Shown here: piece after piece, positions 33,988-40,679 of the stretch
Layout of the letters: every line of letters starts with the position of its first letter
Numbering within the stretch: position 1 is the first letter of the stretch
Notes under the pieces: generated by a model
Seen by the model: the letters and a program-made list of their open reading frames with translations, nothing else
What the model was told of the DNA's origin: nothing
Database searches by the model: none
Translations under genes and position numbers: made by a program
Sequence record: PQ416618.1
DNA: 64,000 nt
Origin: Escherichia phage vB_VIPECOMC06
Direction: 5' to 3' (one strand)

Positions 33988-34331
33988 ATCCGATTTATGC
34001 TATAGTAGCAGCTTTTGCTCTAGTTTCTACGGTAACAATAGTTGTCTTAAACAACAAAGTTGATTCGTTGAATACTGAATTAGCTTCTGTCAAAGAGACC
34101 GCTAAAAACAATGCTAAAGTATTAGACGACTTCAAGGTTCAATATCAGTCAATCGAAGAAATGACTTATAAGAACCGTGTTTTAGTTGACCAACTTAAGG
34201 CCGAAAATGAAAAGCTCCGTAAGGATTCGAAGAAGAAGAACGTGGTGGCGAGTAAGCCAGGATTGGTCGAAAAACAAATCAACAAGTCCTTCGATTCCTT
34301 TGCAGAAGACCTCAGGAAGCTCTCAGAATGA
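33975..34331 (+). CDS. membrane-anchored protein (pseT.3-like by position)
   Basis: 118 aa; N-terminal hydrophobic helix VNPIYAIVAAFALVSTVTIVVL then coiled-coil-like region. Confidence 0.55.
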   Translation: MLKVNPIYAIVAAFALVSTVTIVVLNNKVDSLNTELASVKETAKNNAKVLDDFKVQYQSIEEMTYKNRVLVDQLKAENEKLRKDSKKKNVVASKPGLVEKQINKSFDSFAEDLRKLSE

Positions 34332-34618
34332 TTAAATTAACCGCAGTTGTATTATCTATTGGCATTTTGGCTGGGTGTGCCCAGGATGTGCCCTTAAGCC
34401 CTAAAGAAACTTTACATCCGCCATGGCCTGAATCTATTGTTGAATATAACCAGAAATGGCAAGTAAAGGTTATTGATGGTAATCCGTGGGTTGGAATGCC
34501 GTTTGAAGACTCTCAAGAATTTCGTATCTGGTTAAACGACGTAAAAAGATATGTACATGACCAGAAGACTATGATATGTTATTATCGTAGTGGTTTAAAA
34601 GAGGAAAAATGCCAATGA
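34328..34618 (+). CDS. putative lipoprotein (pseT.2-like by position)
   Basis: 96 aa; signal peptide with lipobox-like LAGC (MIKLTAVVLSIGILAGC). Confidence 0.55.
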   Translation: MIKLTAVVLSIGILAGCAQDVPLSPKETLHPPWPESIVEYNQKWQVKVIDGNPWVGMPFEDSQEFRIWLNDVKRYVHDQKTMICYYRSGLKEEKCQ

Positions 34619-34833
34619 CTAAAGAACAGCACGAATACATTAAAGGGCTTATCTATGAATCTGAAATGGCGGCTATGATTTATGGGCGACAGATTCAACG
34701 ATTAGAATCTTTGCCTCCGACTAACGACCGCTTGTTAGTTCAGTCTCGTGCTAATCTGAAAAATGAATATCAGAATAAGTGGGCAGTAGCGACTAAAGCT
34801 CTTCACGAGTATATTGAATCTTTAGTAAAATAG
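34609..34833 (+). CDS. hypothetical small protein
   Basis: 74-aa ORF overlapping the upstream stop. Confidence 0.5.
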   Translation: MPMTKEQHEYIKGLIYESEMAAMIYGRQIQRLESLPPTNDRLLVQSRANLKNEYQNKWAVATKALHEYIESLVK

Positions 34834-34868
34834 TTTACAAACTCTCGGGAGCAGAGTATAATGCTCCT
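34833..34868 (+). promoter_or_regulatory. early promoter with palindrome flanking TATAAT
   Basis: GTTTACaaactctcgGGAGCAgagTATAATGCTCC. Confidence 0.6.
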
Positions 34869-36102
<1,234 letters not shown>

Positions 36103-36103
<1 letters not shown>

Positions 36104-36294
36104 TGAAACGATTATATGAAGTGATTGAGGCCATCGAACAGCATAAAGAATATTTGTTTGTAGCCTGGCCTTTAGTAAATGGACAGTTCGGTATTGATGT
36201 GCTGGACTATGAGCATGAAGAACGTTTGGACTGCGGTATATTTGATAACGTCGACCAGGCAATTGAATGGTTAAATGAAAACTATGTACGATAA
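36103..36294 (+). CDS. hypothetical small protein
   Basis: 63-aa ORF, ATGA overlap with pseT stop. Confidence 0.5.
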
Positions 36295-36499
36295 ACATCA
36301 CGAAATCGAAGATGAAGCATACAAAATGCTTCGTAAACTAGTGGGACTCAATATGAGTTCTACATTAATCAACAAGCTTACCGAAATTCGTAACGACCTG
36401 AATACTCGTTACAAAGGCGAATATCATGTAGAGTTTGTTCCTGTAGGTGAACCGACCGAGCAATTTGTTGTTCGAGTTAAAGTAAATACTGTACACTGA
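36275..36499 (+). CDS. hypothetical small protein
   Basis: 74-aa ORF. Confidence 0.45.
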   Translation: MKTMYDKHHEIEDEAYKMLRKLVGLNMSSTLINKLTEIRNDLNTRYKGEYHVEFVPVGEPTEQFVVRVKVNTVH

Positions 36500-36506
36500 G
36501 GTAATT

Positions 36507-36782
36507 ATGTTCCCAACTTATTCTGAAATTGTAAAGGTAGTCTTCAGTCAGATTATTGCTAATAATATGTTTGAAGTGTTTGATAATGCAGCCGAACTCA
36601 GAGTTCATGCTCAACTAACTCATGTACTCAATGCTTTGCTCCCAGACCAAGTAGATTCTATTGCTATTACTCTTCTCCCTGGGTCTGCACACGTCATAGT
36701 GGTATTTGATCTTGACGGCGATTTAGTTATCCAATGTGATATCAATTTCGGTACACAAAAAATTGAATGCAAAGCAATTTAA
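36507..36782 (+). CDS. hypothetical small protein
   Basis: 91-aa ORF with GAGG SD. Confidence 0.5.
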   Translation: MFPTYSEIVKVVFSQIIANNMFEVFDNAAELRVHAQLTHVLNALLPDQVDSIAITLLPGSAHVIVVFDLDGDLVIQCDINFGTQKIECKAI

Positions 36783-36784
36783 TG

Positions 36785-36818
36785 GTTTACAACATGGTGG
36801 AGTTGTGATACTATAACT
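36785..36818 (+). promoter_or_regulatory. early promoter driving the operon that includes the DAHP-synthase-like gene
   Basis: GTTTACaacatggtgGAGTTgtgaTACTATAACTC. Confidence 0.55.
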
Positions 36819-36842
36819 CTACCAACAAATGAGGAAATAGAA

Positions 36843-37079
36843 ATGCTAAGTGAAAACCCAATTACAGTACACGAATTTCAGATTAAAGTAAAAGAATTTG
36901 CTCAAGCACTCATCAATAAAGTGTCTGAACGTTTCCAAGATGCAACATTACGAGTTATTCAAGAATCTCCACGTTCTTTTCTCATAATCGTTAATCCTAA
37001 AGATGGTGACCAAATTACTAATCTTAAATTAGGCAGTGATGGTCTTGTTGAAGCAACTCGAGTATATGGAACACTATAA
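36843..37079 (+). CDS. hypothetical small protein
   Basis: 78-aa ORF after an early promoter, GAGGAAA SD. Confidence 0.5.
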   Translation: MLSENPITVHEFQIKVKEFAQALINKVSERFQDATLRVIQESPRSFLIIVNPKDGDQITNLKLGSDGLVEATRVYGTL

Positions 37080-37199
37080 TTAGAGCTATCTCATTACTAT
37101 CGAGAATGGTCATAAATCTGAGCACTACCAACTTAGCCTGTCTAATCCGGTTAAAGGTGTTGTTGAATCAGAATCTGTTTATATCTCCTAAGGATTGTT

Positions 37200-38192
37200 A
37201 TGTTACCTGTCATCAGAAAACTTATTTCTCCAAAAGAACTGGCTGAGATTATTCCTTTGTCGGAAGCTTACGCATCACAAGTGGCTTCTCATCGCGAACA
37301 AGTTAATTCGATTATGAACGGTGAAGACCCACGCAAACTTATTGTTGTAGGTCCTTGTTCAATTCATGACCCTATTGCTGCTGTTGAATACGGCAAACGT
37401 CTGGCTGAACTTCAAACTCGTCTTCCTAATGTTCTGTTAGTGATGCGCGTTTATTTTGAAAAGCCTCGAACTACCGTAGGTTGGAAAGGTCTTGTAAATG
37501 ATCCATATCTTGACGGAAGTTTTGATATGAACCACGGTCTTATAGTTGCACGAACATTGTGTCGTAAACTTCTACGCATGGGACTTCCATTAGCAACTGA
37601 AGTATTAGACCCATTCACGATTAAGTATCTTTCTGGTATTTTCTCATGGGTTGCTATTGGCGCCCGTACGACTGAAAGTCAGACACATCGTGAAATTGCT
37701 TCAGGTCTACCGATGTGCGTAGGCTTCAAGAACGCAACCAATGGTTCTATTAAAGTAGCTACAGACGCGATGTATAGTGCCGCCTGGCCTCATCGGTATA
37801 TGGGTATGGACGTCGATGGTACTGTAGGCATTGTTGAAGCTGAAGGTAATCAGAATACGCATATCGTATTGCGTGGCGGGACTAACGGCCCGAACTATCA
37901 TTCTTCTGATATTCAAGAAGCTTCTAACAAAGCAAGTGCATTAGGTCTGAATCATTATGTAATGGTTGACTGTAGCCATGCAAACGCTGATGGGTATTAT
38001 AGCAATCAAATTGGTATTGGTAAAAATTTAGCAGCTAATGATTTGGTCAAAGGAATTATGATAGAATCATTCCTACATGAAGGAAATCAAAAAATTTCTG
38101 ATAATATGTCCTATGGCGTTTCCGTTACCGATGCGTGCATCAGTTGGGAACAAACTAAAGAGCTGTTAACTTATATTAATAAGGTTCAATAA
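37200..38192 (+). CDS. class I DAHP synthase homologue (3-deoxy-D-arabino-heptulosonate-7-phosphate synthase, AroG/AroF-like)
   Basis: 330 aa; conserved blocks VVGPCSIHD, VMRVYFEKPRTTVGWKGL, AIGARTTESQTHRE, VDCSHANA, MIESFLHEGNQ, VSVTDACISWEQT align with E. coli AroG active-site motifs; AAGGA SD. Confidence 0.85.
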   Translation: MLPVIRKLISPKELAEIIPLSEAYASQVASHREQVNSIMNGEDPRKLIVVGPCSIHDPIAAVEYGKRLAELQTRLPNVLLVMRVYFEKPRTTVGWKGLVNDPYLDGSFDMNHGLIVARTLCRKLLRMGLPLATEVLDPFTIKYLSGIFSWVAIGARTTESQTHREIASGLPMCVGFKNATNGSIKVATDAMYSAAWPHRYMGMDVDGTVGIVEAEGNQNTHIVLRGGTNGPNYHSSDIQEASNKASALGLNHYVMVDCSHANADGYYSNQIGIGKNLAANDLVKGIMIESFLHEGNQKISDNMSYGVSVTDACISWEQTKELLTYINKVQ

Positions 38193-38773
38193 TGAAAGCT
38201 AGCACATATCTTCAAATTGCTTATTTGATTTCTCAAGAATCAAAATGTTGTTCATGGAAAGTTGGTGCCGTCATTGAAAAAGATGGACGCATTATCTCTA
38301 CTGGATATAATGGCTCACCAGCAGGTGGCGTTAACTGTTGTGAACATGCATCCGAAAATGGTTGGTTGAAGAATAAACCAAGCCCGGTCATCGTTGCTGG
38401 ACATAAAGAAGGCACTACGGCATTTGGACGGGCAGATAATTTTGTTTTGGCTAAAGAACATCGGGCCGCTCATAGTGCATGGTCTGCTAATAATGAAATC
38501 CATGCGGAATTGAACGCAATTTTGTTTGCAGCTCGTAAAGGTAATTCTATTGAAGGTGCTACGTTATATACGACGCTTTCTCCGTGTCCTGATTGCACTA
38601 AAGCTATTACGCAGTCAGGTATTAAAAAGGTTGTATACGCAGAATTATATGACAGATCTCCTGAAAATTGGGCAGACATTCTAAAACAAGCCGGTATTGA
38701 AGTAATTCAGTACTCTCGTAATAATCTTCGTTCTCTGAATTGGGAACAAATCCGAAACTTTTGTGGTGAATAA
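38192..38773 (+). CDS. cd: dCMP deaminase
   Basis: 193 aa; MKAST.LQIAYL.SQESKCCSWKVGAVIEK.GRIISTGYNGSPAGGVNCC...HAELNAILFAAR.G.SIEGAT.Y.TLSPCPDC.KAI matches T4 Cd. Confidence 0.95.
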   Translation: MKASTYLQIAYLISQESKCCSWKVGAVIEKDGRIISTGYNGSPAGGVNCCEHASENGWLKNKPSPVIVAGHKEGTTAFGRADNFVLAKEHRAAHSAWSANNEIHAELNAILFAARKGNSIEGATLYTTLSPCPDCTKAITQSGIKKVVYAELYDRSPENWADILKQAGIEVIQYSRNNLRSLNWEQIRNFCGE

Positions 38774-38774
38774 T

Positions 38775-39071
38775 ATGATTTTAACTGAACAAGAAACTAT
38801 GGTTCTTCGTGAACGTATTAAAACTATTCTATCTGTAGGCGTTCATTGTGTTGTATTTGAAAAGGCTAACGGCGAGGTACGCACTATGTTTGCTTCGCGC
38901 GATGAACTTGAAGTCAAATATGAAAATAACAATCCAGCAACAGAAGTTCGTTATGAACCTCGTGAATCAGTTCGAGCATTCGATACCAAGTTAGGCCAGT
39001 GGCGTTCTTTCCGCCTTGATAAAGTAATTTCGGTTGATGGTACTCCGGTGGAACGTTTGCTTCTTATGTAA
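38775..39071 (+). CDS. hypothetical protein
   Basis: ATG at 38775 just after cd stop; about 98 aa. Confidence 0.5.
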   Translation: MILTEQETMVLRERIKTILSVGVHCVVFEKANGEVRTMFASRDELEVKYENNNPATEVRYEPRESVRAFDTKLGQWRSFRLDKVISVDGTPVERLLLM

Positions 39072-39128
39072 TATGCTTTACGAATAGTATGGTATTATTA
39101 ATCTATCGTCAAACAACAAGGAAATAAG

Positions 39129-39461
39129 ATGTCTGAAGTACAACTCCCAATTCGTGCTGTTGGTGAATATGTCATTCTGGTTTCTGAACCCGCTCAAGCA
39201 GGCGATGAAGAAGTTACAGAATCAGGACTTGTGATTGGTAAACGTGTTCAAGGTGAAGTTCCTGAACTATGTGTAGTTCATTCTGTAGGTCCTGATGTTC
39301 CTGAAGGTTTTGTTGAAGTCGGTGATTTGACTCCACTACCAGTTGGACAAATTCGAAATGTTCCGCATCCATTTGTGGCTTTAGGTCTTAAACAACCTAA
39401 AGAAATTAAACAGAAATTCGTAACATGTCACTATAAAGCTATTCCATGTCTTTATAAGTGA
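39129..39461 (+). CDS. 31: gp31 co-chaperonin (GroES-like) for capsid protein folding
   Basis: 110 aa; ...[102 protein letters not shown] matches T4 gp31. Confidence 0.95.
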
Positions 39462-39585
39462 TATAAATAACTATATGAAGAGAACACTCTTCTAAGCGGT
39501 AGCCTACAACTGAGAGACTTGTCGAAAGAAGGTGAAATTCAGAAGAACGTGGCTACTAAATATTATCTCGAATTGAGAATTTAAA

Positions 39586-39834
39586 ATGATTAAACAATTA
39601 CAACACGCTCTTGAACTGCAACGCCATGCATGGAATAATGGCCATGACAATTACGGTGCATCTATTGATGTTGAAGCCGAAGCTCTTGAAATCTTACAGT
39701 ATTTCAAACATCTGAATCCAGCACAAGCCGATCTTCGCGATATCCTGGTCCAGAAAGATGAATTGAAATATGCTAAGCCTCTGGCTTCTGCAGCACGTAA
39801 AGCAGTTCGTCATTTTGTTATTACTTTGAAATAA
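39586..39834 (+). CDS. rIII: rIII lysis inhibition accessory protein
   Basis: 82 aa; MIKQLQHALELQR.AWNNGH.NYGASIDVEAEALEIL.YFKHLNPAQ...KDELKYAKPLASAAR.AVRHFV.TLK matches T4 rIII. Confidence 0.92.
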   Translation: MIKQLQHALELQRHAWNNGHDNYGASIDVEAEALEILQYFKHLNPAQADLRDILVQKDELKYAKPLASAARKAVRHFVITLK

Positions 39835-39997
39835 TTACTACCATGCGTCAGCAAAATGTTAGCTGTGTAAGTCATGGTAGGTATGATGACGGGTTTACGG
39901 TTATCCTGTCGTTAAATATCCAAAACCTATGTTCCCCTTGAGGGCTTGAGCAGGCAATGTCAATAAGTCCTGCATTTTCATTTAAAGAGAATTTATA

Positions 39998-40177
39998 ATG
40001 GCAAAACAAGCTAAAGCAAAGAAAGCAGTCGAAAAGAAAGTTGATGGTACCTCTAAACGCGCTGGATACAAGCGTGGGTCGAACTATCGTATTAATCAAA
40101 CCGTTGAGAAGATCATGCGCAGAGCACGTGCAGTTCTTCGAGATGATGCTTCTCGTTTTGGAAAGGTTGTTGCATAA
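39998..40177 (+). CDS. small basic protein (59 aa)
   Basis: MAKQAKAKKAVEKKVDGTSKRAGYKRGSNYRINQTVEKIMRRARAVLRDDASRFGKVVA; followed directly by a terminator hairpin; below the ORF-track cutoff. Confidence 0.45.
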   Translation: MAKQAKAKKAVEKKVDGTSKRAGYKRGSNYRINQTVEKIMRRARAVLRDDASRFGKVVA

Positions 40178-40182
40178 TTTTA

Positions 40183-40205
40183 GGGAGACTTCGGTCTCCC
40201 TTTTG
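40183..40205 (+). terminator. intrinsic terminator after the rIII-region small gene
   Basis: GGGAGACTTCGGTCTCCC followed by TTTTG. Confidence 0.85.
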
Positions 40206-40236
40206 TGCGTTTAGGGCAGAAAAAGTTTAAAAAAGA

Positions 40237-40266
40237 TGTTTACTCTCCTGTAGGATGTGTTACTAT
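40237..40266 (+). promoter_or_regulatory. T4-type early promoter
   Basis: GTTTACtctcctgtaggatgtgtTACTAT. Confidence 0.55.
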
Positions 40267-40307
40267 AGACTTGTACCACCTAATCAATAAAACAACCGGA
40301 GAATAAA

Positions 40308-40679
40308 ATGAACATTATCAATTTAAATGCTACAATTAAATGCCGTGACCATGATGGATATAAATCTCAAGTTGTTAACGAGTTACAGTGGATGGTTCGT
40401 TCAGTTCAAGGTGATGTGGTTTATTGTACAACTCCTGATGGCCCTTCAGACGATTTTTGTTATCATATCGAAATCGAAAACTTTTTCACTGGTGAAATTT
40501 ACCGTCTGAATTCTACAGTTTATGGTTGTATTCGTTCTAAAACTTACGAAGATGAAGAGACTGGTTACTCTGAAGATGTTGTATGGTACGAAAATGCCAG
40601 AAATCGCGCAGAGGCATTAATCGAGAAGATTAAAGCAAAAGGTGTTATCGATTCAGCTAAGTGGACAAAAATCAAATAA
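40308..40679 (+). CDS. hypothetical early protein
   Basis: 123-aa ORF after an early promoter, GGAGAA SD. Confidence 0.55.
   Translation: MNIINLNATIKCRDHDGYKSQVVNELQWMVRSVQGDVVYCTTPDGPSDDFCYHIEIENFFTGEIYRLNSTVYGCIRSKTYEDEETGYSEDVVWYENARNRAEALIEKIKAKGVIDSAKWTKIK

Follow-up and report, generated by a model that had tools for sequence, protein, structure and literature searches.

Why should 120 nucleotides (nt) without any open reading frame (ORF) separate two genes in the early region of a T-even phage, and what does the second of these genes contribute? The question arises in Escherichia phage vB_VIPECOMC06 (sequence record PQ416618.1), of which a window of 64,000 nt, the whole stretch of DNA analysed, was available. 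Here a gene for a 3-deoxy-D-arabinoheptulosonate 7-phosphate (DAHP) synthase (DAHPS) lies between cd.2 and the dCMP deaminase gene cd, and the gap that separates it from cd.2 had been proposed, in a preliminary description, to hold a translational or RNA-level regulatory element. The region 36500–38800 is 99.3% identical to that of Shigella phage SSE1 and of Escherichia phages HX01 and ST0, and every one of its 139 near-full-length matches is a Mosigvirus (RB69-like T-even phages). Our analysis identified the gap as the 3′ end of the cd.2 gene of a donor phage, which arrived together with DAHPS, and hence as a recombination scar and not a leader element. Taken as a whole, we read the locus, with a probability of roughly 0.8, as an accessory metabolic DAHPS in a variable cd.2/cd slot that is expressed passively with the early genes, is preceded by a scar and encodes a probably deregulated enzyme (Table 1).

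The origin of the gap was revealed by the 35 codons that precede its TAA stop. The encoded peptide matched the Pfam family DUF7320 (E=2.1e-6, 28.1 bits, gathering cutoff 27) and the Cd.2 family phrog_1504 (E=1.8e-5). In local alignment with the Cd.2 of Kanagawavirus it scored 71 (z=11.4), a score reached by 0 of 500 shuffles, with the heptapeptide SYLITIE identical, whereas alignment with the resident Cd.2 (39 codons upstream) gave a score of only 29 (z=2.6). The DNA alignment of the relic with Kanagawavirus cd.2 continues through the stop codon and into the next GG, part of the Shine-Dalgarno site, and the relic TAA ends 8 nt ahead of the DAHPS ATG, while the intact cd.2 of Kanagawavirus ends 9 nt ahead of it. 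The profile matches, the closeness to Kanagawavirus, the DNA alignment and the stop-to-ATG spacing together establish the gap as the donor cd.2 3′ end. A tandem duplication of the resident cd.2 was ruled out, since the relic is far closer to the Kanagawavirus Cd.2 than to the resident one. The gap was also considered as a remnant of T4 cd.1, but that apparent alignment came without any profile match and was superseded by the cd.2 assignment. The relic is a fragment: a full-length Cd.2 domain with a start codon is absent from the gap, which covers only profile positions 45–76 of 78, and the relic frame contains no ATG, GTG or TTG downstream of the amber codon at 37081–37083.

That the gap contains no ORF proved to be a property of this phage. 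The preliminary description of it as non-coding holds here, where no ORF of at least 30 amino acids (aa) fills 37080–37199, but fails in relatives that carry G at position 37081. This position is T in vB_VIPECOMC06 and G in all 11 aligned Mosigviruses. With G, the ATG at 37066 opens a 41-codon relic ORF (37066–37191), which is annotated in Bas47, NRG-P0074 and, in a longer form of 50 aa, O157 typing phage 3, and which forms phrog_15876. With G, moreover, the orphaned start of cd (TAATG, 37079), whose ATG overlaps the cd.2 stop, opens a 55-codon ORF in frame 2 that extends 47 nt into DAHPS; this second ORF was rejected as a gene, having no Pfam or PHROG match. The gap is thus ORF-free here because a single private G-to-T change abolishes both relic ORFs, one by a TAG and the other by an ATT, which cautions that a long "non-coding" gap may be a one-substitution artefact of a gene fragment. 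Among the 138 other Mosigvirus records, the best match to the gap has at least two mismatches in 131, and none exceeds 98.5% identity. A second change unique to this phage, A to G at 37159, replaces isoleucine by valine in the relic frame. The private changes in the 120-nt gap thus number two; compared with the closest relative, cd.2 (237 nt) carries none and DAHPS (990 nt) two. The length of the gap had likewise been called unusual. It is indeed long relative to the median intergenic distance of 10 nt in a crude ORF call, but it is not singular, ranking ninth of 85 such distances, of which 9 measure at least 120 nt and 14 at least 100 nt.

The open frame of the relatives could instead encode a real small protein of 41 aa (37066–37191), a paralogue of the C-terminal half of Cd.2 represented by phrog_15876, whose translation, stopping 8 nt ahead of the DAHPS ATG, would couple ribosomes onto DAHPS; vB_VIPECOMC06 would on this view be a naturally occurring amber mutant. 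All 11 aligned relatives have the ORF open and several records annotate it, the distance from its stop to the next start matches that between intact cd.2 and DAHPS in Kanagawaviruses, and a weak GAG lies 4–6 nt upstream of its ATG. However, the ORF lacks the first 44 positions of the Cd.2 profile, and the amber at codon 6 in this phage indicates that the ORF is dispensable. Diversity was calculated for 12 Mosigviruses (this phage and the 11 aligned relatives), among which the gap has 10 variable sites, or 6 when one unverified assembly, carrying a 2-nt insertion in the ORF, is left out. Its substitutions fall on the three codon positions as 4/3/3, without third-position bias and at about the frequency of DAHPS third-position changes; nucleotide diversity (pi) in the gap is 0.0069, and the substitutions are too few to gauge constraint on it. 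An intact 41-codon frame is in any case expected by chance at such low divergence. We consider a functional small protein rather unlikely.

A cis-acting RNA element (riboswitch, attenuator or protein-binding operator) controlling the translation of DAHPS or the stability of its transcript would accord with a gap that exceeds the 10-nt median and is 95–99% conserved across the genus. Rfam 15, searched over 36700–37400 at a permissive E<=1, returned no match, and a riboswitch or other known RNA family was rejected. The minimum free energy of folding was no better than that of shuffled sequences, either for 37070–37215, which spans the gap (z=+0.36), or for the translation start at 37160–37235 (z=+0.82), and with these positive z-scores a stable leader or a sequestered ribosome-binding site was rejected. 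The 120-nt sequence was found only in Mosigvirus and is absent upstream of the orthologous DAHPS in the Kanagawa-, Winkler-, Kagamiyama-, Klebsiella- and Proteus-phage genera. Within Mosigvirus it is no more conserved than the adjacent DAHPS (pi 0.0069 vs 0.0076), and its whole length is accounted for by the cd.2 fragment. An unconserved and unstructured leader is what the preliminary description had itself set against its proposal, and the gap is just that, being absent in other genera and folding like its shuffles. The regulatory-leader reading is unsupported, since the gap is the scar of a gene fragment that a single private substitution has left without an ORF; a cis-acting element filling it is close to refuted and, in our judgement, extremely improbable.

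A narrower proposal confines the element to the last ~15 nt of the gap and the ATG, where the phage translational repressor RegA would bind the DAHPS start codon. RegA is known to repress many early mRNAs. The DAHPS start is unstructured, like RegA sites (PMC3014915), and its sequence AGGAUUGUUAUGUUA fits the T4 RegA consensus aaAAUUGUUAUGUAA, obtained by in vitro selection (SELEX), at 12 of 15 positions, 10 of them contiguous (PMC3014915). Yet sites with three mismatches are about as common across the window as chance predicts (14, against 10.5 expected), RB69-type RegA selected AAUAAUAAUAA-type RNAs without AUG (PMC3014915) whereas the DAHPS site has a single UAA, and the motif is not preserved in Kanagawavirus or Klebsiella phages. 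The resemblance is real but of chance-level frequency, and a RegA operator at the DAHPS start was therefore rejected as unlikely. RB69 RegA prefers UAA repeats, the selected RNAs being AAUAAUAAUAAnA (PMC3014915). The start of cd, UUAAUAAGGUUCAAUAAUG (38165–38197), contains repeated UAA/AAUAA units that resemble these RNAs and may be a candidate RegA target.

Table 1. Features of the pseT–rIII region of phage vB_VIPECOMC06, in window coordinates
Feature	Position	Strand	Description
pseT	35201–36103		Assigned by comparison with annotated T4, RB69 and other records
cd.5, cd.4, cd.3	last one ends at 36782		Assigned by comparison with annotated T4, RB69 and other records
T4-type early promoter	36785–36814	+	cd.3/cd.2 intergenic; GTTTAC −35, 18-nt spacer, TG-extended TACTAT −10
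cd.3/cd.2 spacer			60 nt
Resident cd.2	36843–37079	+	78 aa; Pfam DUF7320, E=1.5e-35; phrog_1504, E=1e-37
Putative left cassette junction	37079–37094	+	Relatives read TAATGAGAGCTATCTCAT; cd 5′ end is TAATGAAAGCTAGCACAT
cd.2–DAHPS gap	37080–37199		120 nt
TAG amber codon	37081–37083	+	Private G-to-T at 37081; the same change turns ATG 37079–37081 into ATT
Relic of a xenologous second cd.2, 3′ end	37084–37191	+	35 codons (SYLITIENGHKSEHYQLSLSNPVKGVVESESVYIS) and TAA stop
DAHPS translation start	37190–37202	+	AAGGA 37190–37194, 5-nt spacer, ATG 37200; unstructured (z=+0.82)
DAHPS	37200–38192	+	Type I-alpha DAHP synthase, 330 aa; catalytic residues intact, allosteric site remodelled
cd (dCMP deaminase)	38192–38773	+	Pfam dCMP_cyt_deam_1, E=1.5e-26
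MotA-box middle-promoter-like site	39072–39098		TATGCTTTAC, 11 nt, TATTAT; before gene 31
Late-promoter TATAAATA	39462–39469		Before rIII

With the gap identified as a scar, the expression of DAHPS has to be sought in its surroundings. The promoter at 36785–36814 was located by a consensus scan and also by a regular expression, which gave 19 GTTTAC..TAnnnT sites across the window. Base for base, this site aligns with the T4 segment that bears the annotated early promoter Pe133295 between cd.3 and cd.2. T4-type early promoters of the sigma-70, GTTTAC class are characterised by a GTTTAC −35, a spacer of 17–18 nt, a TG-extended −10 and positional orthology with T4, and this site has both the sequence and the position. 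On the + strand, a motif scan detected nothing promoter-like from 36786 to 37973 and nothing terminator-like in 34000–40500; over the latter interval, promoter-like matches occur at the chance rate (23 vs 19.2 expected). Neither a MotA box nor the late-promoter motif was present in 36500–38800, and a hidden middle or late promoter inside the gap was rejected, the closest such signals lying at 39072 and 39462. Downstream of the cd unit, these two are the transcription signals that come next. The early-promoter motif near 36785 and the lack of a recognisable promoter for DAHPS itself, both put forward in the preliminary description, are thus borne out, and co-transcription with cd.2 and cd is a reasonable reading of the sequence because DAHPS lies downstream of the shared early promoter and is packed head-to-tail with cd. 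DAHPS would probably be expressed passively, on polycistronic early mRNA that is initiated at 36785 as well as from more distant upstream promoters and continues through cd, and it would be translated from its own open AAGGA-N5-ATG site. The DAHPS stop does overlap the cd start, as had been described, although the junction is TAATG and not ATGA, with the stop TAA (38190–38192) and the start ATG (38192) sharing one base.

This anatomy and the operon reading drawn from it are right and ordinary, the operon context being standard T-even architecture. Gene order, established by comparison with T4, RB69 and other records, places DAHPS in the slot held by cd.1 in T4. The T4 cd.2-cd.1-cd segment with Pe133295 has the same flanking genes, the conserved promoter and the same packing by overlapping stop and start codons, and the resident cd.2 shares about 70% DNA identity with that of T4. 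The difference lies in the slot, which in T4 holds cd.1 (112 aa, unknown function) and in Mosigvirus holds the relic and DAHPS. Downstream, cd is followed by 31.1 and then by gene 31 and rIII. DAHPS itself is already known: more than 200 phage genomes carry an annotation for it, and PHROGs class it among the auxiliary metabolic genes. With the gene catalogued, the operon context standard and the "leader" a fossil, the locus as it was first described matters little; experimental follow-up is worthwhile only for the allosteric site, which is probably deregulated, and for the cassette's recent sweep. The relic and its low-diversity surroundings do, however, record the entry of an accessory gene into a T-even lineage and its later spread.

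To place this entry, the locus was compared across genera. DAHPS follows cd.2 directly in several other T-even-like genera. Kanagawavirus has 9 nt between the two genes and, like Mosigvirus, no cd.1. In Winklervirus and Kagamiyamavirus, cd.2 and DAHPS overlap in an ATGA-type junction and, in contrast to T4, the slot holds DAHPS plus a cd.1 homologue placed after it. Klebsiella phages have 43 unrelated nt between cd.2 and DAHPS, and Proteus phages have an overlapping upstream ORF. An ORF of ~112 aa that follows DAHPS and overlaps its 3′ end in Winkler-, Kagamiyama- and Proteus-phages (L006:3498–3839, L007:3483–3818 and L019:2457–2795 in our set of loci) shares the motif FNDKK.RF.DG with T4 Cd.1, so that DAHPS and cd.1 coexist in these phages. 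JK36 and RB69 have the empty site, cd.2-TAATG-cd, and no DAHPS.

Comparison with the empty site delimited the left end of the cassette. Of the 15 nt that come next after the cd.2 stop in phages with the cassette, 12 match the cd 5′ end, and the same microhomology patch also fits the donor-type cd.2 codons for SYLI. The former start codon of cd at this junction reads ATT in vB_VIPECOMC06, and the match of JK36 to the window ends at 37094. From this we infer an illegitimate left crossover at 37079–37094, and a right crossover at or in cd. A Mosigvirus with cd.2-TAATG-cd, as in RB69 and JK36, would have gained DAHPS from another T-even-like phage on a piece that also brought in the end of the donor cd.2, with its final ~35 codons and its stop, and the Shine-Dalgarno region of the donor, the left crossover having fallen in the short patch of similarity between the cd 5′ end and the middle of the donor cd.2. 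The resulting cd.2-relic-DAHPS block would then have spread among Mosigviruses by homologous recombination. In most of them the scar still reads as a 41-codon ORF, and the orphaned cd start opens an out-of-frame 55-codon ORF; one G-to-T change has ended both here.

The diversity of the region fits this course of events. Across 36800–38200, which comprises cd.2, the relic and DAHPS, pi amounts to 0.007–0.02, far below the flanks; for single genes it is 0.0076 in DAHPS, 0.047 in cd and 0.15 in cd.3. The fraction of variable third positions is 0.045 in DAHPS, 0.18 in cd.2, 0.28 in cd and 0.60 in cd.3. These values fit a single origin of the cd.2-relic-DAHPS block followed by its recent spread in Mosigvirus, presumably by recombination. 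The low divergence of the block therefore leaves no power for covariation tests, the gap having 6–10 variable sites among the 12 genomes and sequences at least 95% identical.

Several points weigh against this reconstruction. The relic ORF is whole in almost all relatives and has a PHROG of its own (phrog_15876), so that a small-protein or coupling role there retains a slight chance. The gap is 95–99% conserved in Mosigvirus, a uniformity behind which weak constraint, or covariation, could go unnoticed. No DAHPS between 77% and 95% identity, which might mark the donor lineage, turned up in phage records, IMG/VR or metagenome contigs. Insertion and deletion scenarios yield the same junction, and the direction of the event rests on parsimony. 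Finally, co-transcription and deregulation in this phage are predictions from sequence.

We next consider the enzyme. Its identity as a DAHP synthase was clear from Pfam DAHP_synth_1 (PF00793; E=2e-74, 250.3 bits, cutoff 25.5), TIGR00034 aroFGH (426.4 bits, cutoff 173.2) and PRK12755 (453.8 bits, cutoff 343), while it scored below the AroG- and AroH-specific NCBIfam cutoffs. It belongs to phrog_5045, in the PHROG category 'moron, auxiliary metabolic gene and host takeover', and the protein is 100% identical in phages ST0 and AV113. Among solved structures its best match is E. coli AroF (6AGM; E=1e-104), and identity to AroG/AroF is about 47% for this protein and 47–50% among the aligned phage copies. 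The metal ligands Cys61, His268, Glu302 and Asp326 and the phosphoenolpyruvate (PEP) and erythrose-4-phosphate (E4P) ligands Arg92, Lys97, Arg99 (KPRT), Arg165, Lys186 and Arg234 are all invariant in a 12-sequence alignment. In an alignment of 155 sequences the same ten residues are conserved, with 1–3 alignment gaps at Cys61, Glu302 and Asp326 only. The phage protein is most likely a catalytically complete type I-alpha enzyme, predicted to convert E4P and PEP to DAHP.

The aromatic feedback site presents a different picture. Its elements, namely N-terminal residues 6–10, Pro150, Gln151, Ser180 and Phe209 (AroG numbering), are not kept in any of the 14 T-even phage DAHPS examined, which come from six genera. 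All 14 lack the N-terminal ~9 residues and carry I150, K151, P180 and Y209, whereas among 138 other homologues, from viruses and metagenome contigs, P, Q, S and F occupy positions 150, 151, 180 and 209 in 136, 132, 136 and 135 sequences, respectively. AroG variants with P150L, S180F or F209A/S resist feedback inhibition, and the amino acid, when bound, is contacted by Q151 and S180 (PMC9529685). Because the inhibitor contacts are replaced and the N-terminus is lost while the catalytic residues are untouched, the T-even phage DAHPS is predicted to be feedback-resistant, and it is probably deregulated, escaping inhibition by Phe, Tyr and Trp. Compared with E. coli AroF, AroG and AroH (PDB 6AGM, 1KFL), it thus shares the fold family and every metal, PEP and E4P ligand, but has an N-terminus ~9 residues shorter and I, K, P and Y in place of P150, Q151, S180 and F209. 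The alleles of AroG and AroF engineered for feedback resistance in the production of aromatic compounds (P150L, S180F, F209A/S, D146N) are altered at the same positions 150, 180 and 209, to which the phage enzymes add the Q151 contact. The phage changes, by contrast, are natural, combined and fixed across six genera, are to I, K, P and Y, and leave D146 in place, and the resistance they would confer is a prediction. No experimental work on a phage DAHPS was found in the searchable literature. If feedback-resistant, the enzyme would bear on how phages take over metabolism and would offer a ready-made catalyst for the production of aromatic compounds.

What the enzyme might do for the phage can be approached from its neighbours and from its distribution. 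The preliminary description took co-expression with dCMP deaminase and polynucleotide kinase to suggest a role in the DNA precursor or modification programme. RB69-type phages make arabinosylated 5-hydroxycytosine from ribulose-5-phosphate via an arabinose-5-phosphate isomerase (PMC13326640), and DAHPS might accordingly supply sugar or precursors for this modification, which would explain its pairing with cd. Mosigviruses and several other DAHPS-bearing genera are listed with the gene cluster for 5-hydroxycytosine and arabinosylation (PMC13326640), and the arabinosylation pathway uses pentose-phosphate intermediates while DAHPS consumes E4P. The distribution of the two genes, however, does not agree: JK36 and RB69, the latter being the phage in which arabinosylation of DNA was shown, carry the isomerase and no DAHPS; 57 Acinetobacter phage records contain the isomerase compared with 4 that contain DAHPS; and Klebsiella phages, 25 of which contain DAHPS, are not among the ten commonest genera of the isomerase. 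DAHPS moreover lies ~100 kb from the modification cluster, which adjoins gene 43 and not cd, and its intact KPRT motif for E4P indicates that the substrate is probably unchanged. With co-occurrence of DAHPS and isomerase failing, a link to DNA arabinosylation was rejected as very unlikely. DAHPS is neither necessary for nor confined to arabinosylating phages; since RB69 and JK36 are without the gene, it is dispensable and not tied to arabinosylation. The argument from co-expression is correspondingly weak, as the same slot holds cd.1 in T4, the gene is missing from RB69 and JK36, and the isomerase is not tracked; co-transcription with cd says little about function because it is the default for anything inserted in the early region.

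The likeliest role of DAHPS is an accessory, deregulated entry into the shikimate pathway, in which it would most likely feed PEP and E4P into that pathway whatever the levels of Phe, Tyr and Trp. Auxiliary metabolic genes of phages include cyanophage transaldolase and other pentose-phosphate enzymes. DAHPS resembles this type as a host-type enzyme of central metabolism in a lytic phage, with early expression predicted here, and differs from it in the pathway, which here would be entered at the shikimate branch. A bolder scenario, which we put forward only tentatively and regard as possible though doubtful, would have a naturally feedback-insensitive DAHPS in at least six T-even genera (N-terminal lid lost; P150I, Q151K, S180P and F209Y fixed) force PEP and E4P into chorismate after host shut-off, for example for aromatic amino acids or for p-aminobenzoate and folate behind phage dTMP and modified dCMP. 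The cassette would then have swept Mosigvirus recently, by recombination, as advantageous, and the relic ORFs would incidentally tune translation in most Mosigviruses.

Two further observations were made in the course of these comparisons. In Klebsiella phages (L015 and L016: 1458–1500), a 7-bp hairpin with a UUCG tetraloop (UAAGGGC-UUCG-GCCCUUA) directly follows the stop codon of cd.2; it is similar to T4's known intercistronic C(UUCG)G hairpins and has no Mosigvirus equivalent. Within the aligned region, cd.3 seems to occur as two very different alleles, with up to 85 of 276 nt differing.

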